A stretch of DNA of 63,998 nucleotides, filler included, from Dirinaria sp. TL-2023a (Eukaryota): NCBI GenBank assembly GCA_051941275.1. It is 17 parts of 17 records of this genome, joined end to end, with 100 filler letters (N's around TTAATTAATTAA, not from the genome) between each part and the next. Parts side by side here need not be neighbours in the genome. Positions count along the whole stretch, not along the records: positions 7,679 to 11,405 come from JAVEBF010001977.1; 16 more parts are not named here. The stretch is one strand, 5' to 3'. Made by a program: the position numbers and the translations under genes. Shown one piece after another: positions 7,579-48,800 of this stretch (position 1 is its first letter; every line of letters starts with the position of its first letter). Below the pieces are notes generated by a model that saw nothing but the letters and a program-made list of their open reading frames with translations, searched no databases and was not told the DNA's origin.

Positions 7579-7868
7579 NNNNNNNNNNNNNNNNNNNNNN
7601 NNNNNNNNNNNNNNNNNNNNNNTTAATTAATTAANNNNNNNNNNNNNNNNNNNNNNNNNNNNNNNNNNNNNNNNNNNNGGGAAGGCAGGGGAGGGGAATG
7701 CAGGTCCCCATCTCATCCTTTGCTTAGTCTAAAAGGTACTTTAGATCTTTATATCTTTGAAGACCTGGGTTAGGTAATTAATGTAGGTAGGTATACAGAC
7801 GCGATTTCTTTGCCAAAGACACCGAAAAAAAACAAACTCTTACAGTACAGCCTAAGAATTTTATGTTT

Positions 7869-7900
7869 CCTTCTTTCTTTCTTTCTTTCTTTCTTTCTTC
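7869..7900. repeat. (TTTC)n microsatellite
   Basis: Directly visible tandem TTTC run. Confidence 0.85.
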
Positions 7901-8026
7901 ATGATTTAATTTGATTAAGCGTGCTTAGAGAGTACCGAGTAAGGGTAGGTAGGTATATACATGTAAGTGAGCCGGGCAAGGATTGCATTTCTTTGCTTGC
8001 CTTGGAGGAGGATTGGAGGCTTGGAG

Positions 8027-8710
8027 TGTTAGGGACTAACAATGATGGGGCCAATAATGCCTAATAATATGGGCAAATTGTATGGATAATGATGATGCTG
8101 GCGCACATGCTCATGAAGCTTTGTGTTGCTAGGAAACTTGGCAGCGCAACGTCTGCAAGCATGCTTCCTTGCTGCCATGAGTTCATCATGATGCTCTTTT
8201 AGCCATAGGCAGTCAGGTGAGTACTTCTTATGCCCCTCATAAGGACCATCGCTCTTGATCCAACCATCAAGAGAAATTCTGCAGGTGTAACACTCAACAC
8301 AGTCATTGCCGTTCTCTGGGGTGTAATGAAATCCCGCATCTATTGTCTGTTGCTTTGAAGGGTACTGATGCGGCCATGTGTGCATACAGAATTTGAAGGA
8401 GAGTTCGCGATATTCTTGAGTATTGTTTGTGACTTTGAGTGAGGTAGTCATGGTGCTACGCGGTAGCTAGATAATGTCCGTGGTTTTTATGCTGACGGGC
8501 TAGGTGCTTTTGAAGCTGTATGCCTTTATCGCTGGCAAAGAAGCTGAGTATTCCAGAGGAACTGTTTGTCAACAAGGTGACTGTACACTGCGATGCAGTT
8601 AGATGCTACAAGCAAGCATCGAAATCCTGCCGATAGAGGCAGGCATCGTCACTTGGTTGATGCTACTATTTGTTAGGGACTAACAATGATGGGGCCAATA
8701 ATGCCTAATA
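8027..8710 (-). mobile_element. Miniature direct-repeat-bounded (TRIM/LTR-like) element carrying a BIR-C2H2 ORF
   Basis: Identical 40-bp repeats TGTTAGGGACTAACAATGATGGGGCCAATAATGCCTAATA at 8027-8066 and 8671-8710; TGGAG flanks both ends (8022-8026, 8711-8715); each repeat has near-inverted ends TGTTAGG..CCTAATA. Confidence 0.75.
8029..8451 (-). CDS. BIR (baculovirus IAP repeat) domain + C2H2 zinc-finger protein, 140 aa
   Basis: TWP..AGFHY..D.VECYTC-x16-H-x6-C matches the BIR zinc-ligand spacing; followed by CRRC..FPSNTKLHEHVRQHH (C2H2). No introns; the stop lies inside the terminal repeat. Confidence 0.8.
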   Translation of the reverse strand: MTTSLKVTNNTQEYRELSFKFCMHTWPHQYPSKQQTIDAGFHYTPENGNDCVECYTCRISLDGWIKSDGPYEGHKKYSPDCLWLKEHHDELMAARKHACRRCAAKFPSNTKLHEHVRQHHHYPYNLPILLGIIGPIIVSP

Positions 8711-10734
8711 TGGAGGCTTAGAGGATTTTGTAGATAGGAGGGAGAGTTAGAGATTTAGAGAAAGAGCAAAGCTCCAACGGAATTCGGGGGATACACATAG
8801 TAAATGTTCTTGCAACAGAAGTAAAAAGGTAAGAAGGAAAAAGTCCAAACCCCCCGCCCGTTGTGGGGAAATGAATTCGGTTTGTTTAAAGCAAGTGTGC
8901 TCTCTACTTTACCTCTATATCTCAATTTTAATTTAATCCTTGCCTACATCCTTGCCTAACCTTTCCCCTCGCTCTTTTTTGAACAAAATCAATCATTCCC
9001 AATTTCCCCCCCTCCTTTTCAAGATTTAATCCCGAGATCCTCGCTCAGGTTCTAAGCAGATCCGTTCCCAAAATTTTCATTTTTGGAATTCAAAACTTAA
9101 AGGCATTTTTATCCTCTTTTTTGTGGGAGAAGAAGAAATAACAGACAGACGCTTAGAGAAAAACAGAAAAATCGGGGGGATGGCTGGCTTGGCTGGCTCT
9201 CTGCTCGATATCGTACGAGTATGAGTGGAGTAAAGTAAAGTACAGCCCAGGAAGGAAGGAAGACAAAAGATTTTCCCCCTACTACCATTGAGTGATAATA
9301 GTGCTGGAACTATTAAGGTATGATAACGATCAGGACATATATTATTATTTGACTGGATCGATCCTAAGGTACGAGTACCTTCCTCGTTATCGCCCACGCA
9401 CGCAGAGCAGAGCAATAATAGGAGCAGATAGCGAGCGCCCCTTAATAGGCCTAGCCTGAAGTGCCGCAATCTTTAATATATCCACACCACTCCGACATAC
9501 CTAAGGTTCATACATACATGGTGTCGTATTTAGGTACTTTAGGTACAGTCTCGTACGATACGATAGATAGATTAAAGGGGGAGATAGATATATATTAAAT
9601 GATCGGCGCCGGCTCAGGCTGGCGCTGGCCCAGCAAGCCTCATGCAATGCAGCTGCAACGCTCGCATCACACCCACCCACCCTTTCTCCCACTCTTACTT
9701 ACCGCTTTAGCTTAGCTAGGAAGCATGTAGATCCAGCCCACACACATCACACATCCCAGATGCAAGCAAAGCCCGTCATGCCAACACCATCATCGTAGAT
9801 TGCTCCGGCATGTACTGTACTGTACTGTACATTACATATGGACATGACACGCTGCATTATCATGGATCTTCTTACCTTACCGACCCTCCCTCCTCACGTT
9901 TGTTTGTGTTTGTCAGCACATCGCATTTCGCATCTGGCATACATATTATTGCGCGATCTGGCCTCGTATTCGGGCTTCCCCTCTCTCTCCCATGTTGAAG
10001 CAACTGTAGGGATCGGATTCGCATTCAGATTTGGGCATGGGCAATCGTAATGCAGAGGTGGAGAAAATTGAAGGTGGCTGGCTGGCTGGCTGATCTCTTG
10101 TAAAAGCAAAAGAGAGGATTGTACTGGGGTTGGGGCAGAAGGTGGTGGCGTTTGAGAAATCAAATGCTGCAAATGCATTGGACGATTATCAGGTATGATG
10201 AACCGGATCCTCGAAACGGTGATGGACGGGTTCATCAGTGAAGGGCCATTTTCAGAGAGGCAGATTTTGAAAGTTGTAGCAGTGTTGCACCTCATTCTTG
10301 CCAGACCATACGACGTCGTTGGCCAAAATGTACTGTAGGCTGCCTCGTTTTGTTGTAGGTCGAGGAGCAGACAGAACGATGTGCTTTAGCTTCTGCCTAG
10401 CCGCCGCTTGGGCTCACTAGGCTTAGACAGACAGCAGGAAAACGAGCTTGATAGATTTCACTCACCTCTACATGGATTCCGACGCTTGGTGAATCATGTA
10501 GAAGTCGTGTTGCGAACCCATTGCTCCAGGCACTATCTTAAGGAACGTAGTCAAGAGAATGTGAGAAGTCGGAACCTTGTCCGCGTGAAAACAATCCTTT
10601 CCCTCAGCGTCTGGACTTTCGTGATTAAATACTTGCTCGCTCATGGAAAATGCCATGGTACTCTCACGCAACTTCATGTCGATTTTGCTTCCCTGGAGGG
10701 CTGCGGCTCTCCTTTCCCCAGCCTTTCCGGCCAT

Positions 10735-11046
10735 TCAGCCCAATTTCGCATACGGCTTATACCCTCCATAGCCGTATACTTTCCCCGTCCACGTGGGTAT
10801 AGGTGCGGTCCCGGTGGCATAAGGTGCGGTTCCCCAGGGTGCCGTGGCAGTGCCAGTCCCCGTTCCCCAGAAAGTACCAGTGCCAGTGCCACAAGGCGCG
10901 GTTCCAGTCCCCGTCGGTCCAGGTGCGGTGGTGGAGTTGCTAAACGGGTAATATCCAAACGCTGGAGATGCCCCTGCCGGAAGGGGGACGGCGAGGAAGA
11001 GGATTGCTAGCGGAGCAGCAAGGAGTGCGGAAGGCGAATATTGCAT
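10735..11046 (-). CDS. Small secreted Thr/Gly/Pro-rich repeat protein
   Basis: Hydrophobic signal-peptide-like N-terminus, an NST sequon, repeated TGTGTAP/WGT units and a Tyr/Gly tail; ACC precedes the ATG. Confidence 0.6.
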   Translation of the reverse strand: MQYSPSALLAAPLAILFLAVPLPAGASPAFGYYPFSNSTTAPGPTGTGTAPCGTGTGTFWGTGTGTATAPWGTAPYATGTAPIPTWTGKVYGYGGYKPYAKLG

Positions 11047-11505
11047 GGTTACTTGCTGTTGCTGGTGAATGCCGACGAGGCGGACGTGTCTTTGGTAGCG
11101 GAAGTATTATGGTGTCGGTGTCAGAGACGTGATGTGTCTCTCCCTTGGTTGCCCAGAATTATAGGTAGGTATGGCAATGGCTAAACCAGAGGTGTGCTGG
11201 TTGTATGAACCTAGGATACAAGTAGACAGAGAGAGAATTGAGACACTTAACACCACGCAAGCGAGTGGAGAAGTTTGCAATGATGGGACCAATTAGCAGC
11301 AAGCGAGCCACAAAGCCGAGACGTGTGTACAAGAAATAAGAGAGAATGGTACCAAGATATACCATCCTCTCGCATGCTATCAAAAAAAAAAAGGTTGAGC
11401 TTGTGNNNNNNNNNNNNNNNNNNNNNNNNNNNNNNNNNNNNNNNNNNNNTTAATTAATTAANNNNNNNNNNNNNNNNNNNNNNNNNNNNNNNNNNNNNNN
11501 NNNNN

Positions 11506-11683
11506 GTCTTCGGCGGCTGCCTTTTTCTGGTTCTCCACCGCGGCCTTCTGCGCTGCTACTTCGGCTTTCTGCACAGGTGTTAGCAGTGACTGGCATCGTG
11601 ATGATATGAAGAGGTGGGGGGGCGCGAACTTTGGCGTTGCCGGCAGCTTTCTTGGTGTTCTCGCCTGCTTGCTTCTTTCCCAT
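11506..11683 (-). CDS. CCDC124/Lso2-like ribosome-associated coiled-coil protein, N-terminal part
   Basis: MGKKQAGENTKKAAGNAK, intron (~11569-11629, GTTCG..CTAAC..CAG), then KAEVAAQKAAVENQKK; cut by contig edge. Confidence 0.75.
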
Positions 11684-12144
11684 GTTTGAGACTGGAACAG
11701 GATCACGGTTATGTGTGGATGTGGCGTTCTCTGCCAGAGGTCCGCAAAGTCAGATCTGATTCAGTCCTCGTAGCAACTAGCTATATGTAAGGAATGAGTT
11801 GAGTAGACTGTAGCGTGGGGCGTAGTAGGTAACGTAATGTAGGGCTGAGACTGCCTCACATCAAGGTAGTGGTGGGATAACACCACCTGTAATCTGATAA
11901 TCGGGTGATCTCCGGTTAGCACTAGGCTCCGTCTTTAATCGAGTGCTAAGGTACTGTATTAAGGTATGGATGGGAGGATGGCTAGTGTAAGCGATTTAGT
12001 GATGTACAATGATCAATGCCTGAGGCGAAAATACTTCGTAAATAGCCAGGATCATTGACTTATATTGTCAGTTTGTGCTATACCACCATGTCCAAAAAGC
12101 AAGGTTCCTGTCAAAACTCCCACGCTGTTGCAATACCTAGATGT

Positions 12145-14679
12145 TCAACCAACCACAGCCTTCATGCTCAAGCTCTCCAAAAAGCCACTGAGGTCCTCCT
12201 TTTTGACCTCGACCACGCAATGCTCAAAGCTGTCAATCCGGACCCGAGCATTGGTCTCGTCCACCACCTCCTGGAATGCATTACCAAACCGATTCTTGCC
12301 AAATCCCCGTTCCTCCATGCGTTCGTCAAGGTCGTCATCGCTGCTGTCTTCACTGTCTTCGCTCTCCGTAGCATCTTCTTCCTCATCTTCGTCCTCGTCC
12401 TCGCCATTTGCTGCTCTCTCGGCAGCTCGTTCTTGTTTCCTTCTCGCCTTTTCCTTTTTTCTTTCCTCCTTTTGCTTTCTCTTCGCAGCGGCTCTTTCTT
12501 TGCGCTCTTGCCTTGCTTTCCAATCCATGATTCCGCCACCTCCACCTGTGCCAACGACCACGTAAACCCCTCTGCCTTCATTGAGGCCGGCAAGCACAAG
12601 GGGCGTTCCTTTGCCGCCCTTGCCGATTTTTCCCTTCTGTTCTTTTTCTTGCTCTGCAATAGCTTCCCCAACCCATAGCGCCAGCTTCGTCAATGCTGAC
12701 GGATGTGTAAAGAGCTGAACGTCGGGGCCTTCTTTAACGACAGCCATACGGAAAGCCCGCAGATGCCTAATCTGCTTCTTCTCCAGAAGCGATGTCCCAG
12801 TGCGCAAGATGGCGCGATGGAGATGTTGCGCCATGGGCAAGGCGTGCTTGAGAACTTCGACGTCCCCCAGCGCATCGTACGCTTCCCAGAATCTGCTGAC
12901 CCATTCTGCGCCTTCTAAGCTGCCATCTTCATCGACGAGTTCCGGACGTTCCCCTCGATTTCTAGCGTCGTCGATTGCACTCGGCCCAGCCTTACCGATT
13001 TCAAGGATGGCACCAGCGATAACACCAACATCCACCGCGCTGAGCGTCGCTTTCCATCCCCAGCTGCGCACGAAGCCCCAGCCTTCTCTGCCACCTCGAC
13101 CGCTTGCTGCTGGAGGGACTAGTCCGTCCAAGCCGTACATTGGCGCGTACATTAGTAAGCGTTGTCGTAGACCTTTCTTAAGATCCATGTCCATGTGTGT
13201 GTAGCTCTGCTTGCACTGACTGAGTGAAACGCCCATCTTGGCCAGCAGCTTGTGCAAACGCTTCCGTCCGACATCACTCCAGATGTGCAAGCGTGCAGAC
13301 AGATATGGCGAGTGTAACATACTGTCGTAGAGTGACCAGTGACGAATGAGAAGAAAGCGAGGTTCCGGAGAAAGGCGGATTGAAGTATCTGTGGGCGATT
13401 TTGCAGTGGTTGGTATGACACCGGACGCTTCCCCCCGCAAGACTTCACGATCACTGTCATTGCGATCAGGAGGGTTTAGTCGCCGGACTTCGTCACGTAA
13501 AATCTGCCGAATCCGTTCCCCTCGTTGACCACCCCAGCCTGCTGAGCCACCTGATTCAGATGCCGAAGAGATGCCTACACCAGTCATAGTTCGGCCGTAA
13601 AGTTCAAGTGAGCTCACGCCAACAATGGCGTGCCACAAAAGATCGTTATCTTCTCGGCCAAGGTCTTCAGCCAGAGAATACAGCATGGACGAGATAGGCT
13701 CAGAGTAAGATGTGCCTAAAGTGTAGTAGTTTTCGAGGACAGCCGAATGCTTGCGCCGAAGACGAAGAAGTCTACGTCGGAGCCTGCGCGCTGACGGTTG
13801 TTTTGGTGAAGGCGGTGATGAAGTGGCATGATCCGCAGATTGAGAGCGAGATATGTCTGACTGAGCATGATGATATACTTGACGGGGTGATGAGGATATA
13901 GAGGTATCTGAATTGCTTCTCCGCCGTCGCTGCGGCCTAGTATTCTCTTCGTCACTTTCCCGTTCGTCCTCGGCTGGATCGCCCCAGAACTTCCTCTTCC
14001 TTGAGTCTGCGTTGCCATTTACAGAAGCCGAAGCGTCACTTTCCGGTCCCGAGTTGTCACTGTCCCCGTTGTCTTCGATATCTGGCATTTCAGCCAGTGC
14101 GCAGTATGCTTCTCGTTCAGCTCCAAGCTCTTCATCGACATCACCATCGTCATAGACAATGATCCCCCCTTGTCCTGGATTGTACAATGGCTGTATCTGC
14201 CCTTTGATGACACCTAAGTTCTTCGACTTTGCGTTCCCATTCGTCTCTTGCAACGTGTGATCCGAAGGATTTCCTCCGAACACATTCCCCAAGTTCCAAG
14301 GCCTTTTCGCGTCGACGATCCACACTTCCACGCCCCCAGATGGGTCTTGCCCGTCCTCCGCATCGTCCAAGCCCAGCATGTTCGACATATCGACCAGACC
14401 GCCGACGCCCAAACACACGACGAGCCCTCCGCTCCCTCCTTGCTGTGTTCGCATGGGCTGTACCAAAGTCTCACCAACATGTGCCAAGTCACTGTATCCT
14501 GCCATTGGCTGTATCTTGTGCTGGATGTAGTCCCGCTTGAGAAGCGCCGTGAAAATACGGCAAGCACATAGCGCATCTGGCTCCAGTGCGACTAGGATGA
14601 GGACAGGTGGAGATAGGGCGTGGTAGGTTCTTCGGAGATGCTGGTACAGATGGGAGATTAAGGCTCGTGGGAGGTACAT
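12145..14679 (-). CDS. CDC45: DNA replication initiation factor Cdc45 (844 aa, intronless)
   Basis: VLILVALEPDALCACRI, DAKRPWNLGNVF, LLIRHWSLYDSM, KRLHKLLAKMG, FWEAYDAL, NRFGNAF..RIDSFE. Confidence 0.95.
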   Translation of the reverse strand: MYLPRALISHLYQHLRRTYHALSPPVLILVALEPDALCACRIFTALLKRDYIQHKIQPMAGYSDLAHVGETLVQPMRTQQGGSGGLVVCLGVGGLVDMSNMLGLDDAEDGQDPSGGVEVWIVDAKRPWNLGNVFGGNPSDHTLQETNGNAKSKNLGVIKGQIQPLYNPGQGGIIVYDDGDVDEELGAEREAYCALAEMPDIEDNGDSDNSGPESDASASVNGNADSRKRKFWGDPAEDERESDEENTRPQRRRRSNSDTSISSSPRQVYHHAQSDISRSQSADHATSSPPSPKQPSARRLRRRLLRLRRKHSAVLENYYTLGTSYSEPISSMLYSLAEDLGREDNDLLWHAIVGVSSLELYGRTMTGVGISSASESGGSAGWGGQRGERIRQILRDEVRRLNPPDRNDSDREVLRGEASGVIPTTAKSPTDTSIRLSPEPRFLLIRHWSLYDSMLHSPYLSARLHIWSDVGRKRLHKLLAKMGVSLSQCKQSYTHMDMDLKKGLRQRLLMYAPMYGLDGLVPPAASGRGGREGWGFVRSWGWKATLSAVDVGVIAGAILEIGKAGPSAIDDARNRGERPELVDEDGSLEGAEWVSRFWEAYDALGDVEVLKHALPMAQHLHRAILRTGTSLLEKKQIRHLRAFRMAVVKEGPDVQLFTHPSALTKLALWVGEAIAEQEKEQKGKIGKGGKGTPLVLAGLNEGRGVYVVVGTGGGGGIMDWKARQERKERAAAKRKQKEERKKEKARRKQERAAERAANGEDEDEDEEEDATESEDSEDSSDDDLDERMEERGFGKNRFGNAFQEVVDETNARVRIDSFEHCVVEVKKEDLSGFLESLSMKAVVG

Positions 14680-14896
14680 GGTGCGAAGAAGAAATCATAC
14701 GAGTCAATGAGTATTATCCGACGAAGTTTGGAGATCTGAGTAAAGCTTGAGCGAGAGCCGCAACAGTTATAAGGACGGCCTTCGGTCTGATGCACACGAC
14801 TTCGAAATAATTCATCTTTAAGAACGACAGAGTCTACAGAATTCATAGAGCATTGAATCAGAGTGCAAGGCCGATACAAAAACTGAGAGAACTCTA

Positions 14897-14956
14897 ACGC
14901 GAAAGGTAGTAACTTGGTCGACGCGCCGATGGCGAGACGCGATAATTACGTAATTA
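14897..14956. promoter_or_regulatory. Cluster of MCB/SCB-like ACGCG elements upstream of CDC45
   Basis: AACGCGAAA (~14897), ACGCG (~14921), ACGCGA (~14937) and palindrome TAATTACGTAATTA (14943-14956), 220-280 bp upstream of a G1/S replication gene. Confidence 0.5.
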
Positions 14957-17224
14957 CTCGCCAAAACTTAGCTATCCTTGGCAGCTAAAAGTAGCTAGCG
15001 TGCTTCACATCGAAACTACCGAAGATAATAACATTAAGCAGCACAAACAACACCGCGAAGCAGGCGGTGATAAAAGGCATATTGAGCAGCCCCCCTAAAC
15101 ACAAGCATCAAAACGGCGATGGAGCAAAAATGGTGCACACAATGGCAAAAGAGCAGTATAGGAAAAGCGCTGCGAGACATTGAGCCACGACCAAGAAAGG
15201 ATATTTTGAAGCTCCACGAAAACCTCACAAANNNNNNNNNNNNNNNNNNNNNNNNNNNNNNNNNNNNNNNNNNNNTTAATTAATTAANNNNNNNNNNNNN
15301 NNNNNNNNNNNNNNNNNNNNNNNNNNNNNNNTTTTTAAGGGGGGGTGAGGTATCTACGTTTAATATGATCTTTCTAAGGTTCGAAAATTCTCTCCGATAT
15401 AGATTTTTTCTATTGAGGACGGAGGAAGCAGAGTTGACTTGTTCTAGGATGCCGGGAAATTGACTATGTACCTTACAACACTGAGCCCAAGATAGCAGTC
15501 TCGACTTGGAGTCATTTTCAGAGCGAGAATTTGGCACCTCGGATATCTCGTGCCTGGTGATAAGGATATACAAATTTCTCAGAACAGGGAGTGAAGTAGA
15601 CTTGAGGTGAGTGAGTTATTTCGATGTTTGATTATTGCCCAATAAGGAAAATATGAGTACAGACTTGTGGCACCACATGCCAACTGGACGACAAAGCATC
15701 AATAATACCTTGCAACCCCAGATTTCTTCTTTCTTTCTTTTGGATCAGTACTCAATACACGCCTATTTCAATTGCTCTATCTGTGAGGAACTACACTATC
15801 TTCTCTCAGTCTTCAAACGTTCCCATTTCAGCTACGTTATCTGTAAGTTACTCGACTTTTACCTTAGTGCTTAGCTCATATTCCGTTCAGATGCTCTCCA
15901 CAAGCGATTCTATAATCTTATTATCGTCGAAATCCTTCCTATGGCCTCGCCAAGTGACAGCAGAACTTCTTTTCGAGAGTGTCCGTATCAGTAGAACCGA
16001 CTATCCAGTATATAAGGAGCATCACTTGAAGATTCTAAACCACACATGCGGAAGCGTGGGATTTATCTGCTTATCGTACCTGCGGGGAACAGAATTCTGA
16101 TAGACGATCACATTATATTTCGCTCAACCTGTTCCAGCTGCATGAAACTTCGGCGATGATTTCTGGACCGTGGCTTATTCCAACAATCAGCTCGAAACGG
16201 TAGGCCATGAGAAGGTTGATACGGATCATACAATAGTCAAAAATTCCAGCGATAAAGTCAAAGACGACGTCTCCGAGGGTATGGTCTTGTACGAAGAAGG
16301 AAAACGAAGAATGAACGCCAGGACGGAGAAAACAATAGGCAAGTACCTACATCTCTCCCATCGAAAATCATAAAACACTGCCCTGAGATTATAGCGACTA
16401 CGTGCGCAGAAGCAAGCAGGTCTGACCACTAGTAGTTTCCATTCATGTGGTCGAAAGCCAGACGTGGTGGATTAGTATTGGAGGTACTCAAGTATCCCAT
16501 GCTCTGGGAACAATATATGCTAGAATTGTTCGACTGGCCTATCGCGATTATTCTTTCCGTGCTCTTCCTGGGGTCAACAGAATAGGGAAGTTTTATCAGT
16601 GTGATTGACGAGGATACGAAGCGTCCACATGCGTATCGCATTTTGATGCCATTCAGCCCTACCTTATCATCTGCTACGATAGAATGCCAAGAAACACCGA
16701 CGGATACAAGAAACATCAAACCTGCCTCATTTGTCTATTGATCACTACAGAGATGAGCCTCCAACTGCTTACCTCCAAATTCTAGACGGCATTATGATTG
16801 CCTGCCTATGCTCGCCTTCTTATAGAGAGTGATTAGATCACATGTTTTGCGCTTTCCTCGGAACAACCAGGAGATAATCTACTCCAGGCAGGCATTTTCT
16901 TTGTGTATGAAGATCATGCTACTCGGAAATCGTTTTGGTCTCGAACTACGCCGCGCTCTAAACTCTGTCTTGACGTCACGCTTAAAAAGATCAAGAAAAA
17001 GGCAGCCTGCTCAATATCAATGTCTCAAGAAATCTATAGTACCTACAAAATGATGTCAATGTAGTGTAATACTGCATCAAAGTAAGTCCCTTCAGAGTGT
17101 TTCTAGAAAATTCTCGGTATATACGATCCTTGGATTGAGGCTGTCAAGGGATATCTGCTCTTGTTCTTTCTCTCAATTCATCCCTTCCCAACATCTGTAG
17201 AGTTCTCGCACCAAACCAACAACC

Positions 17225-18880
17225 ATGTCTTCCGAAACACGAGTACCAGTCCTTATCATAGGAGCAGGCATCGTAGGCCTGTCTGCCTCTCTCTGTCTCT
17301 CACAAAACGGTATATCCTCCCTAAACATCGAGCGGCACTCAGGCCCCTCAATCCATCCGCGCGCCCGGAGTGTCAACGCCCGAACAATGGAGCTCTACCG
17401 CCGTCTTGGGATTCAAGAGCGAGTCATCGAAGCCGGAGCCTCGTTATCGCCTACCTTCGGCATCTACTCCGGGTCCACACTCAAGGAGGTCATCGAAGCG
17501 AAACCGCGTAGCAAAGAGCAGCGGAAGCTCCCCTTTACCGGATTGATTGCGCCATTGAGTCCTGTCAAAGGCGCGTTTGTCACCCAGGATATGATCGAAC
17601 CGGTGCTGGTCCAAGCTGCACGGGAACACGGAGGCGAAGTGAGATTTGATACTGAATGTCTCAGTCTTGAGCAGGATGACGATGGTGTGACGGCTACTTT
17701 GAAAGCTCGCGAGAGCGGTGCCACATCAACAGTTCGAGCATCCTATCTCATTGCCGCCGATGGTGCAAACAGCCCGATCCGGACCCGGCTCAACGTTCCA
17801 GTGACCGGCCGCGGCGCAATGGGCCATCTTATCAACATCCTCTTTCGCGCCGACCTCAAACCCCTTGTCGACCGCCGCGAGTTCTCAATCTGCAAGATCA
17901 ACCGGCCGGAAGTGGTCGGCTTCTTCGCCTCCATCAACAACAGCGACCGCTGGACCTTCCACCTGTCCTACGACCCCTCTCGAAACGAAAAACCCGCCGA
18001 CTTTCGGCCCGAAAAGTGCAAGCAATTGCTCCGTATCGCTCTAGGGATTCCGGACATCGACATCCGCATCGAGAGCATGCTCCCCTGGGAACCGTCCGTG
18101 CGGATCGCGGAGCAGTTGCAGCACGGTCGGATCTTCCTGGCGGGTGATGCCGCACATCAAATGCCACCTTGGGGTGGCCAGGGCGCCAATTCAGGCATCG
18201 CGGACGTGTACAACCTTTCCTGGAAACTCGCCGCCGTATTGAACGGATGCGGGAACAAGGCCTTGCTTGAAACCTATGACGTCGAGCGCATTCCCGTGGG
18301 ACGAGCAGCTGCAGAGGCATCGGCAAGCGGGGTTGATGAAAGGGGGCTTATATCGGTGAAACGGGATCTGACCACTGTGATTGGTTTTCTGAGAAAGATT
18401 CCGCTTATCTCCGGGCACGGGTATTGTTATTCGAGTAAAGCCATTTGCGAGGAAGACACTTCTCCTCTGGGCGGATTGACTTGGAGGCCGTGGACACTAC
18501 CAAGCATATTCCTATCCCTCGATGGACGACCAGGAAGCAGGGCCCCGCATGTCTGGATGGAGTATCAGGGAAAACGGATTTCGACTCTTGACCTATGCGG
18601 TAAAGGGTTCGTGCTTTTCGCTGGAGCGGAGGGTGGATCCTGGTCAGAGGCCATGAAGAAAGTAGCTTTAATTCTGGGCGTGGAGATTGCCGCGTATCGT
18701 GCGGGGCCCGAAGGCGATCTTGGTAGTGCAAAGGGCGAGTTTGAAGCGGCGGTGGGGATTTCTTCCCAGGGTGCTATCCTGGTTCGTCCAGATGATTTTG
18801 TAGTGTGGCGCCAGAGGAGGAACGTCCCTGATCATAACGCCGAGCTTGAGCGCGCGATGAGGCAGGCGCTGTGTCTATAA
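17225..18880 (+). CDS. FAD-dependent aromatic monooxygenase (FAD_binding_3; PheA/TfdB/RdmE-like)
   Basis: GAGIVG Rossmann motif, IAADGANS, GRIFLAGDAAHQMPPWGGQGANSGIAD, RPGSRAPH, LVRPDDFVVWR; 551-aa intronless ORF. Confidence 0.92.
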   Translation: MSSETRVPVLIIGAGIVGLSASLCLSQNGISSLNIERHSGPSIHPRARSVNARTMELYRRLGIQERVIEAGASLSPTFGIYSGSTLKEVIEAKPRSKEQRKLPFTGLIAPLSPVKGAFVTQDMIEPVLVQAAREHGGEVRFDTECLSLEQDDDGVTATLKARESGATSTVRASYLIAADGANSPIRTRLNVPVTGRGAMGHLINILFRADLKPLVDRREFSICKINRPEVVGFFASINNSDRWTFHLSYDPSRNEKPADFRPEKCKQLLRIALGIPDIDIRIESMLPWEPSVRIAEQLQHGRIFLAGDAAHQMPPWGGQGANSGIADVYNLSWKLAAVLNGCGNKALLETYDVERIPVGRAAAEASASGVDERGLISVKRDLTTVIGFLRKIPLISGHGYCYSSKAICEEDTSPLGGLTWRPWTLPSIFLSLDGRPGSRAPHVWMEYQGKRISTLDLCGKGFVLFAGAEGGSWSEAMKKVALILGVEIAAYRAGPEGDLGSAKGEFEAAVGISSQGAILVRPDDFVVWRQRRNVPDHNAELERAMRQALCL

Positions 18881-45828: not shown

Positions 45829-48800
45829 GAAAAGATGTCTAGACACTGACGCCGATCTGAGACTCGTTGATCGCCAATTTTTAAGGCGGCAAAGCTCAGA
45901 TGTCACTATCAGAATCATGACATCATCTGTTACTGTCCGCGGTATTGACACTAATCAACATCAGACTACTGAGTACGTTATTGCTTTTATGTATTTCACG
46001 AGGGCAGACGACAAGAGAAATCGAGTTCGCGTCATGATTAGACGTGAACTACATGTAGTCGATGATTTAAAAGTCAATGTGCTCATTGACAACGATATTA
46101 TGAGTGCCGAAGACATATCTATTGATCTAGAAAAACGAGTTGCTAGAATCGATAGCTGCGGTGTTATCGTGTCAATTGAAATTAGAACATCACATAAGAG
46201 CAGTTCCGTTCAGAAATCAGTTCACTTACGCAAGACGACAGTCATATCGCCGCGTAGCGAGCAGACAGTCGAAATTCACAATCTTGCAGTCTCGGATGAT
46301 CGAGACTATCTTTTCGAATCTGCTGAGTTGAATCATTTGATCATCTATGCGCATATGATCAATGCGACCACGAGAGCAGTCATATTGAAAAATGACTTCA
46401 ATAGTTCAATACAAGTATCACGGAATCATCGATTAGGTCGCATTATCGAATTAGAATTTTCAAATGCGTATCACGTTGAGAACCAATCGATACGAGATCT
46501 TGCTACTAGAAGATCGCGATCAGATCACAAGCCGTTCTGATTTAAAAAGATTATCGCCGCTCTCGCTTCCGTGGCTACAGTGACTGCAGTTGACACTGCC
46601 GCGATCTCTTCGTCGATCACTTCGATCATCTCATCCGCGATCGCTTTGTCTTCTATGTCGAAAATTTCGTCACTTTCAGACGTGTCGGATATCGCGTTAT
46701 TCTGGAAATCGATTCAGAACATCGCAGTTTCACTCTCGAAAGCGGAAACGTCATCTCTGCTGAGCGAGCTATGAAATTCGTTTATCTCGTCGAGATCGAT
46801 TCAGTCAGTCTGAAAGTCATTTACGAACGAGTCGTCGATCGTATTTGTAACGGCATCAAGGTTAACGGTCTCTGTTACGCCTGACTCTTCTCGTGACGAG
46901 ATAACTCTATCGAATGAAGTAACTATTTACAACTTCGATGGCGAGGCGATACAGAAATTACGAGTCGTAGTGAAAGCCTTTCTCGATTTATGAAAGGACA
47001 GCGGATTTGCAGACGTTCTCGAGAATAACTGAATGAGAATATCATTGAAGAATGATTGAGAATCTAAGATCAACGGTAAGATCAAGATATACCTCTTGGG
47101 TCAACGCGATAGAGATCTGATCGATACTACGCTCGATGAACTACATGACAAGGGTCGTCTATCATGAACTACTAAATTTACATCGTTTAGTTACCCCCTG
47201 TTTTGTGTCTGAAAGCACATCTCTGAAGGCAGAAAGAGCCGTGTGGTCGTTGACGTGCGAGGTTTAAATTCGATGACTCAACTCGACGTCTACCCTTTGT
47301 CATTGCAGTCCGACATAATACAACTATTGGCGAAATGCAAATACATAATCGTGATCGACGCAGCTTCATTTTTCTATCAGTGAAGGGTTCATTCAGATGA
47401 TCGGCATAAGCTTACTATCGTAAGCCATCGAGGTCAGGAGACCTTCAATGTGGCGATTATGAGGTTTAAGAATTCGTCGGCCTACGTACAACGTCAAATA
47501 GATCGTATTCTTCGACCACATAGACGATATGCTAGGGTCTATATCGACGACATTGTCATTTATTCTAGATCACTCGCAGAGCATTTGAATCATCTAAATC
47601 GGGTATTTGAAACGCTTCAACATTACAACATTTCTTTGAAGTCTATCAAGGCCTTTGTCGAGTACTCAACGATACAACTACTTGAGCAGAAGATTGACTC
47701 ATTCGGCCTTGTCACGACGGAAGACAAGCTCAAGGTCATATCGTGTCTTAAGTTTTCAAGAACTCTTAGGCAATTGAAAACCTATTTGAGTCTCACAGAA
47801 TGGCTACGTGAGTATGTATCGATGTATGCAGGCATCGCGAAGTCTTTACAGAATCGCAAGACCGAATTATTGCGCAACGGACTCACGACAGGCAATCTCA
47901 GACGCATCTACTCCGCGGTCACCAAAGTACAGAATTCTACTAGAAGAGAGCTCGCCTCATTTGAGATACTGCAATTCATGTTTTCAAAAACAGTTCATCT
48001 TGCACACTTTTCTTCTAAAAGGCAATTGTATGTTGATCTAGATGCTAGCAAGAAATTTGGTTTCGGGGCGATGCTCTATCACGTTAAAGACGACGTCAAC
48101 TGAAATAACAAGAGCTTTTCGTCTAGACGATCTATAGAGTCAATCTTGTTTCTAAACAGACTCATTATCGGCGTCGAATCTCGCTATTGATCGACCGAAT
48201 TGAAGTTAGCAGATATCGTGTGAGTGCTTAAGAAAATCCGACATTACGTGAAAATCACTACTCTGACGACGATCATCTATACAGATCATGATGCTGCTCT
48301 GAACATTGTCAGACAGACATCAATGACTACGTCGTCGACGAATAAGCTGAATCTTAAACTAATTAGAGTCTCCGATTATATTCAGCGGTTTAACGTGAAA
48401 CTTCGTCACAAATCGAGAAAGCAGCACCTAGTTCTCGATGCTCTGTTCAGACTATTCAGCGATAACAGCAACAAGTCAGACTATGACGAGAACGGCGAGC
48501 TAGATGTGCTATACATCACTACTTTGATCGAGATGAACGCTACCTTCAAACAACGTATAGTGAACGGCTATCAATCTGACTTCAATTGACAGAAGGTTCA
48601 AAATACTCTCAGCGACAACGAGAACGTTATCAATTTCTCATTTGTAAGAGAAGACGATCTCATCTATCGCACGAATCGATTTATCATCGGTCAGCACGTT
48701 TATCAATCGCGACGTCTTTGCATATCTCACTCCGTTGTTAAGAATATTCTAGACATGATTCATAGCGCGGAGAGTCATTCAGAATTCGCTAAGTGTCTTG

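Follow-up and report, generated by a model that had tools for sequence, protein, structure and literature searches.

A truncated BIR-zinc-finger insertion in a Dirinaria genome, probably derived from a family of small non-autonomous LTR retroelements

The genome assembly of the lichen fungus Dirinaria sp. TL-2023a (GCA_051941275.1) contains a 684-bp unit with short terminal repeats whose open reading frame (ORF) carries a BIR domain, a module known from cell-death regulators, from the chromosomal-passenger proteins survivin/Bir1 and from baculoviruses. The unit occupies positions 8027-8710 of the stretch of DNA analysed here (63,998 nucleotides, filler included; hereafter the window), with its sense on the minus strand. 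We propose that it probably derives, by truncation, from a family of small (~2 kb), non-autonomous long terminal repeat (LTR) retroelements of lichen-type ascomycetes. The window copy has retained the leader, the opening 121 codons of the family ORF and, at each end, the final 40 bp of the LTR; missing are the remainder of the ORF, the purine tract and ~130-150 bp of upstream LTR sequence.

The window joins 17 short contigs of ~3.8 kb which slowly shrink in length and are separated by 16 spacers of the form N44-TTAATTAATTAA-N44, ~3.8 kb apart across 3740-60991; genes that are adjacent here are not genomic neighbours. The contig with the element spans 7679-11405 (3.7 kb), with ~350 bp separating its left end from the start of the element. 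At 7859-7898, ~130 bp outside the element, there is a (TTTC)n microsatellite.

The element is bounded by two exact 40-bp direct repeats, 8027-8066 and 8671-8710, as a sequence-only reading of this DNA had proposed. The 40-mer has just these two matches in the whole window when up to 3 mismatches are allowed, and none of 100 shuffles gave two matches. As expected, a 21-mer of the repeat had no match in either the prokaryote-genome or the viral collection. Immediately outside both repeats stands TGGAG (8022-8026 and 8711-8715), within the 4-6 bp size range of a target-site duplication (TSD). The flanking DNA is itself a tandem of the 8-mer TTRGAGGM, which could by its repetitive nature have mimicked such a duplication. 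When the element is removed together with one TGGAG, however, the 8-bp period runs on continuously, whereas without a duplication it shifts by 5. Because this reconstructed empty site keeps the period, the local tandem alone is insufficient and we take TGGAG as a true 5-bp TSD, in agreement with the sequence-only reading. The GC content of the element (0.45, against 0.47 for its contig) is without decay of the kind left by repeat-induced point mutation (RIP). A recent insertion had been suggested from the identity of the repeats; 40 identical bases carry almost no dating power, and we therefore do not claim one.

Read in the sense of the element, its ends are TATTAGG..CCCTAACA. This changes the earlier description of the termini as TGTTAGG..CCTAATA, one transition away from TG..CA: the end that reads TGTTAGG on the plus strand is the 3' end, ..CCTAACA, which closes with CTAACA as in all relatives described below and is a canonical CA end, while the TA at the 5' end corresponds to an internal position of the LTR.

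The ORF (8029-8451, minus strand) encodes 140 amino acids. It terminates within the repeat, at a stop codon 2 nt short of the element end, and the final 12 codons plus the stop are supplied by the terminal repeat 8027-8066, as had been noticed before. The predicted BIR domain is genuine by the Pfam profile (PF00653, E 2.6e-15, 57.1 bits against a cut-off of 22.9) and shows the zinc-ligand spacing C-x2-C-x16-H-x6-C; by sequence, the matching solved structures are those of NAIP (E 3e-19), the BIR1 of cIAP2 (E 1e-9) and survivin (E 4e-9). The C2H2 finger claimed alongside it scores below the Pfam cut-off (E 0.037, 15.2 bits against 27) but is conserved across the family nonetheless. An ORF and Pfam scan of the 684 bp found no gag, pol or transposase, again as first reported, and neither RING nor CARD domains are predicted in the ORF or in family members. 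A protein word search with the ORF returned no match of near length.

What did not hold up is the description of the ORF as an intact BIR gene. Its best relative, a 504-residue hypothetical protein of Physcia stellaris (P0151), aligns at 61% identity between ORF residues 5-121 and its own residues 41-156. When the fetched family proteins were searched against the window by tblastn, all 101 alignments fell in 8000-8500, and among the 15 alignments listed the ends were at 8089-8092, apart from one at 8131. The C-terminal three quarters of the family protein (~350 residues) had no tblastn match anywhere in the window. Conversely, the ORF tail (residues 122-140) matched no family protein, a comparison with 260 proteins showing just scattered 4-mers. 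The ORF thus consists of the first ~121 residues of a 450-600-residue family protein followed by an unrelated tail of 18-19 residues. Rather than a selected miniature inhibitor-of-apoptosis protein (mini-IAP), it is probably a by-product that happens to be ended by a stop codon in the LTR terminus.

An exhaustive HMMER search with the ORF gave 2934 matches at E <= 0.001. Most of those scanned were of animal type in their architecture, combining multiple BIRs with RING, CARD or NACHT domains, but about a dozen, 150-600 residues long, extended over the C2H2 finger. These define a family in which the BIR and a first C2H2 finger are followed by a linker, rich in Ser, Thr and Pro and containing three short conserved motifs, and a further C2H2 finger lies at the C terminus. 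A profile search collected 114 relatives, among them 36 distinct Physcia stellaris proteins that are distributed over many scaffolds; the remaining matches are mostly from short contigs of about 1-5 kb, and several members are degraded, with a composition rich in I, F, K and N. The family is highly multicopy, and the general statement that fungal BIR proteins are usually single-copy fails in the Physcia stellaris lineage.

Pfam detected no reverse transcriptase, integrase, protease or Gag in 19 long family members. An AlphaFold2 model of P0151 (30-sequence alignment) predicts a folded BIR and first finger, with scores in the predicted local distance difference test (pLDDT) of 82-96 and above 90 in the region homologous to the ORF; the C-terminal finger is likewise predicted to fold, and the rest is modelled as disordered, without a capsid-like domain. 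The C-terminal 348 residues of P0151 gave no usable match in the ESM Atlas. A possible gag-like tail in another member, P0012, was not supported: BLASTP against gypsy Gag gave E 1.7 and Pfam returned 0 families at E <= 10.

The setting of the family ORF is seen in 14 metagenome-contig loci with distant relatives of the ORF, which we compared by all-versus-all BLASTN and by alignment of repeat ends. The relatives are units of 1974-2031 bp, plus one of 2385 bp with an extra insertion, framed by LTRs of 169-191 bp that start with TGTTAC or TGTTAT (some with TATTA) and end with CTAACA. The 7 complete relatives carry 7 different 5-bp TSDs, perfect in 6 of them (ATTTG, ATATT, ATAAA, GTCTT, ATTAA and AATAA) and with one mismatch in the seventh (TTTAT/TTTAC). 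A conserved block follows the 5' LTR, and a GAAAAAGATAAG-like purine tract stands just before the 3' LTR. Between them, the internal ~1.6 kb fits a leader of ~255 nt and an ORF of ~450 codons, and nothing more. The BIR ORF thus travels inside small non-autonomous LTR elements. In this respect the sequence-only reading was right to see an insertion of the LTR-integrase type, non-autonomous and with a BIR-C2H2 ORF as its sole gene.

One could instead regard BIR-C2H2 as an expanding host gene family, with the window copy a pseudogene fragment lying by chance between short repeats. In favour of this view, no enzyme domain appears in any family protein, and one relative (L002/L005) is set in DNA of normal GC content beside an SNF5 gene. 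The very same L002 copy, however, is flanked by 182-bp LTRs and a perfect ATTTG TSD, and both the duplications of the 7 complete relatives and the conserved non-coding blocks at the junction of LTR and leader speak against a host gene family. We find this explanation scarcely credible.

The window copy is in register with these elements. Its minus strand is colinear with positions 146-776 of the L002 element: the last ~37-40 bp of the L002 LTR pair with the 40-mer, CTAACA on CTAACA, and from there the alignment covers the leader, with its conserved block, hairpin and additional blocks, followed by the ATG, the BIR and the first finger. In a multiple alignment with 5 relatives the LTR-leader junction shows near-invariant columns. 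The non-coding junction alone exceeded shuffled sequence at z = 10.9 for L002, 6.7 for L004, 6.6 for L011 and 4.6 for L008; the value for L013 (z = 2.6) was not significant. This alignment identifies the 40-mer as the 3' end of an LTR whose length, measured in distant relatives only, is ~170-190 bp. The repeats of the window copy are direct terminal repeats as in any LTR element, though at 40 bp, against 169-191 bp in the relatives, they are 3' ends only and not the complete miniature LTRs for which they had been taken. The parts of the element, from left to right in the window, are as follows.

8022..8026, no strand: left copy of the TSD, TGGAG on the plus strand and CTCCA in the element sense; its removal restores the 8-bp period.
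8027..8066, minus strand: 3' terminal repeat, made up of the final 40 bp of the family LTR and closing with ..CCCTAACA; an exact repeat, homologous to the LTR ends of the relatives.
8067..8088, minus strand: junction segment that separates the repeat from the part with protein homology; family matches stop at 8089-8092, and the segment contains TTTGCCCATAT.
8089..8451, minus strand: homologous part of the ORF (N terminus, BIR and first C2H2; residues 1-121), 61% identical to P0151 residues 41-156.
8029..8451, minus strand: the whole 140-residue ORF with its stop codon, from the ORF call.
8452..8670, minus strand: leader, or 5' untranslated region, which aligns colinearly with those of the relatives; 8501-8588 is also found in RNA-library contigs of a related lichen fungus.
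8626..8643, minus strand: hairpin CCTGCC-TCTATC-GGCAGG; relatives have GTCTATC-TTCTATC-GATAGAC at the same place.
8644..8670, minus strand: conserved block in the position of a primer-binding site (PBS), with near-invariant columns in the window and 5 relatives.
8671..8710, minus strand: 5' terminal repeat, consisting of the same 40 bp from the LTR end and beginning TATTAGG; an exact repeat, placed by alignment to the relatives.
8711..8715, no strand: right copy of the TSD, TGGAG on the plus strand.

Several leader features deserve comment. In the hairpin at 8626-8643, two pairs are changed on both sides; 8 of 500 shuffles reach its covariation score and 69 of 500 its count of double changes, which with 6 sequences is a hint only. 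The region of this hairpin has a complementary LTR segment, situated ~53-65 nt from the LTR end and of low complexity (TAGATAGA), in 4 of the 5 relatives examined, an arrangement that might allow self-priming; its counterpart in the window is a 6-mer only. The junction segment 8067-8088 (~20 bp) includes the 11-mer TTTGCCCATAT, which relatives of the L002 type have in mid-LTR, and may, by a weak link, be a remnant of the upstream LTR. Two further observations concern the leader itself. Within 8501-8588 there is a ~39-nt motif (..CGATAAAGGCA..AGCTTCAAAAGCA.CTAG) which is kept in the distant L002, with a second, weaker copy there. A second hairpin, GCTAC-CGC-GTAGC at 8455-8467 (minus strand), lies 4 nt before the ATG, where L002 has GCTAC-AAC-GTAGC.

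How might such a shortened copy have arisen? We suggest that a template lost the 3' part of the ORF, the polypurine tract (PPT) and most of the U3 part of the LTR, through deletion or through template switching during reverse transcription. Plus-strand synthesis would then have started irregularly, 40 bp short of the LTR end, so that each new LTR received these same 40 bp, and the resulting DNA would have integrated with a normal 5-bp duplication. We favour such a single reverse-transcription event because two independent deletions with identical end points are unlikely. The same consideration bears on a scenario in which a full-length ~2-kb element inserted and was then reduced in place, one deletion taking the first ~140 bp of the 5' LTR and another the 3' part of the ORF together with the PPT and the initial ~140 bp of the 3' LTR. 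Old LTR elements often carry internal deletions, and 8067-8088 could be what such a deletion left of the upstream LTR. Yet this scenario needs two independent deletions ending at the identical LTR position, one of which must have halted exactly at the TSD boundary and left a perfect TSD and a periodic target, and the two 40-mers are identical. We therefore regard in-place deletion as very unlikely.

In LTR elements the upstream part of the LTR, U3, holds the promoter. The window copy lacks U3, and the sequence before its 3' repeat, ..CCATACAATTTGCCCATAT, is not purine-rich; having neither U3 nor PPT, the copy is therefore probably unable to move again. This bears on the proposal of the sequence-only reading that the unit belongs to a self-sustaining, TRIM-like lineage with genuine 40-bp LTRs which spreads a functional mini-IAP of one BIR and one finger. 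Identical terminal repeats with a clean 5-bp TSD are what such a lineage would show, as are an open ORF with all zinc ligands in place and the lack of RIP-like decay. Against it stand the missing purine-rich tract before the 3' repeat, a length of 40 bp that is too short for a U3 promoter, and a 5' TA that falls at an internal position of the homologous LTR. In addition, homology of the ORF ends at residue 121, its run into the LTR being an accident of frame.

Sequences from a related fungus also speak to this question. The only public runs found to share words with the contig of the element were three RNA runs from one lichen-metagenome sample (0.05 share of sampled words), which we used as contigs. 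These contigs cover the neighbouring gene at 10523-11315 at about 92-96% identity, which indicates a related species. They contain the 40-mer with 3 mismatches and with both flanks unlike those of the window; the segment 8027-8081 with 5 mismatches, adjoining a different outer flank; and the leader part 8501-8588 with ~39 additional nt. None of the RNA-library contigs, which can show neither expression nor absence, spans the body of the ORF, the flanks or an empty site. The occurrence of the repeat in other surroundings fits a family that is dispersed in the related lichen fungus. For a TRIM-like lineage, too, it is favourable that the repeat, and also the repeat with 15 adjacent internal bases, turns up beside other flanks, but those 15 bases contain TTTGCCCATAT, part of the LTR of distant relatives, and the contig in question may be an ordinary longer LTR. 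Taken with the points above and the absence of a second copy in the window, this makes a self-propagating TRIM-like lineage rather unlikely for the window copy.

The interval 10523-11315 of the neighbouring gene has a word depth of ~85-125 in the RNA-library contigs, far exceeding the rest of the contig of the element, and includes an ORF at 10735-11106 (minus strand) for a small Thr/Gly/Pro-rich protein with a hydrophobic N terminus, a putative signal peptide.

A number of points weigh against our proposal that the unit is a truncated family member. Neither a second copy of the 684-bp form nor an empty site was seen within the ~64-kb window. The TA in place of TG at the 5' end would make a poor integrase substrate. 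The relatives are distant (at most 38% protein identity, and 66-87% identity in cross-locus DNA alignments) and all degenerate, with a GC content of 25-38% and a longest ORF of at most 102 residues; the LTR length and the U3/R/U5 borders are read from these distant relatives, not from the species of the window. The 27-nt block at 8644-8670, for all its PBS position, does not start with TGG, and no tRNA gene for comparison with it occurs in the window or the relative loci. Finally, the contig is known from the assembly alone, and the repeat length of 40 would equal k-1 for an assembler run at k=41.

The last two points, together with the shortness of the contig (3.7 kb) in a fragmented assembly, could be read as signs of an artefact, either a collapsed tandem array or circle of a 644-bp unit or a false de Bruijn loop through a common 40-mer. 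Such an error would not, however, put a canonical LTR terminus at both outer junctions together with a 5-bp duplication that restores the period of the target, and on its inner side the 5' repeat meets the leader just as the LTR naturally does in 5 relatives. We consider an assembly artefact highly improbable, and continue to favour a truncated derivative of the small LTR elements.

With a BIR/C2H2 protein as their sole ORF, the small elements would depend on the enzymes of an autonomous LTR element in trans. The helper is probably of the Ty3/gypsy type. One locus, L013, carries a nested gypsy element at 11235-17638 whose 480-bp LTRs are 97.7% identical. The ends of these LTRs, TGTTACGA..GTAACA, share their first 8 nt with the LTRs of the small elements, and the pattern TGTTACGA..TAACA is common to both, as are the 5-bp TSDs known from ascomycete Ty3/gypsy elements. 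Unlike such elements, the small ones have neither gag nor pol, and the sequence after the 5' LTR differs between the nested gypsy and the small elements, so the primer may differ as well. The common termini being short and generic, this gypsy element is a candidate partner only. In the Dirinaria assembly itself, another contig of the window holds a broken Ty3/gypsy-type pol fragment at 47384-48586 (plus strand; RVT_1 E 2.9e-9) with weak RT_RNaseH_2 and RT_RNaseH matches, a type of element that could be a source of enzymes in trans.

The relative loci offered some further observations. Several are set in very AT-rich DNA. L010 seems to be the same locus as L013 without the gypsy element and would thus be the empty site for that nested insertion. 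L014 contains 1.6-kb direct repeats (1-1586 and 8934-10519; 85.6% identical, 8.9 kb apart) which are probably the LTRs of a large element, whose only match to the family is a weak one to C2H2. In L011, a long array of ~110-120-bp tandem repeats (10128-11315) follows directly after the 3' LTR of the BIR element.

As to the origin of the BIR domain, the closest BIRs outside the family by identity (42-45%) are the first BIRs of ascomycete two-BIR (Bir1-type) proteins of 687-971 residues, from Geoglossum, Morchella, Cryomyces, Sarea, Pneumocystis and Tuber. We built a tree of 62 BIR domains over 78 columns from 21 family, 7 fungal and 8 animal-type proteins, the label 'animal' being given from domain architecture only and domains aligned over <50 positions being dropped. 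The family formed one group, with a support of 84/86 that is not decisive, outside the Bir1 BIR1 clade, the BIR2 clade and the animal-type set. This separate position does not support a recent capture from the host Bir1, the relation for which a phylogeny had been suggested. Family members have the genuine BIR fold and zinc-ligand spacing of fungal Bir1/survivin, but where those are single-copy proteins of 700-1000 residues with two N-terminal BIRs, the family has one BIR followed by C2H2 fingers, is multicopy and sits inside LTR elements. The animal inhibitor-of-apoptosis proteins (NAIP, cIAP, XIAP, survivin) provide the best solved-structure matches to the ORF by sequence, but the ORF lacks their RING, CARD and NACHT domains.

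Among mobile elements, the ~2-kb relatives resemble the non-autonomous LTR classes LARD, TRIM and TR-GAG in their TG..CA repeats, 5-bp TSDs, PBS-position block and PPT-like tract, and also in lacking pol and depending on the enzymes of a partner. An ORF is absent from TRIMs and LARDs, and the one in TR-GAG elements is for Gag. The family differs from all three in its single ORF for a protein with one BIR, two C2H2 fingers and a disordered linker and with no capsid-like fold predicted, and the window copy differs further in its repeats of just 40 bp and its missing PPT. In the part of the literature open to full-text search, with Repbase and Dfam outside its scope, we found no description of a BIR-bearing LTR element or of the BIR-C2H2 family.

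A more tentative idea is offered as a possibility that we consider less likely than not to be correct: the family may be a new kind of lichen-fungus LTR retroelement in which gag and pol have been replaced by one BIR-zinc-finger protein that aids its own spread, and the window copy a possible first step toward a domesticated mini-BIR gene. The fingers and the basic, disordered linker would bind the RNA of the element through the conserved leader blocks; the BIR would dock on new N termini of the processed Gag or integrase of the helper, or on the histone H3 tail; and a gypsy-type partner would package and integrate the parasite RNA.

The window copy is of lesser importance in this respect, as it is probably an immobile by-product, yet it would illustrate how errors of reverse transcription can yield an integrated element with 40-bp LTRs. 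If the idea of a new kind of element is true, a BIR protein as the sole gene of a multicopy fungal LTR retroelement would be a new use of this domain by a mobile element. It would also define a new type of non-autonomous LTR element that encodes a protein other than Gag, and provide a tractable case of hitch-hiking on a helper. Dozens of 'hypothetical proteins' of lichen fungi would then be transposon ORFs and not host genes.

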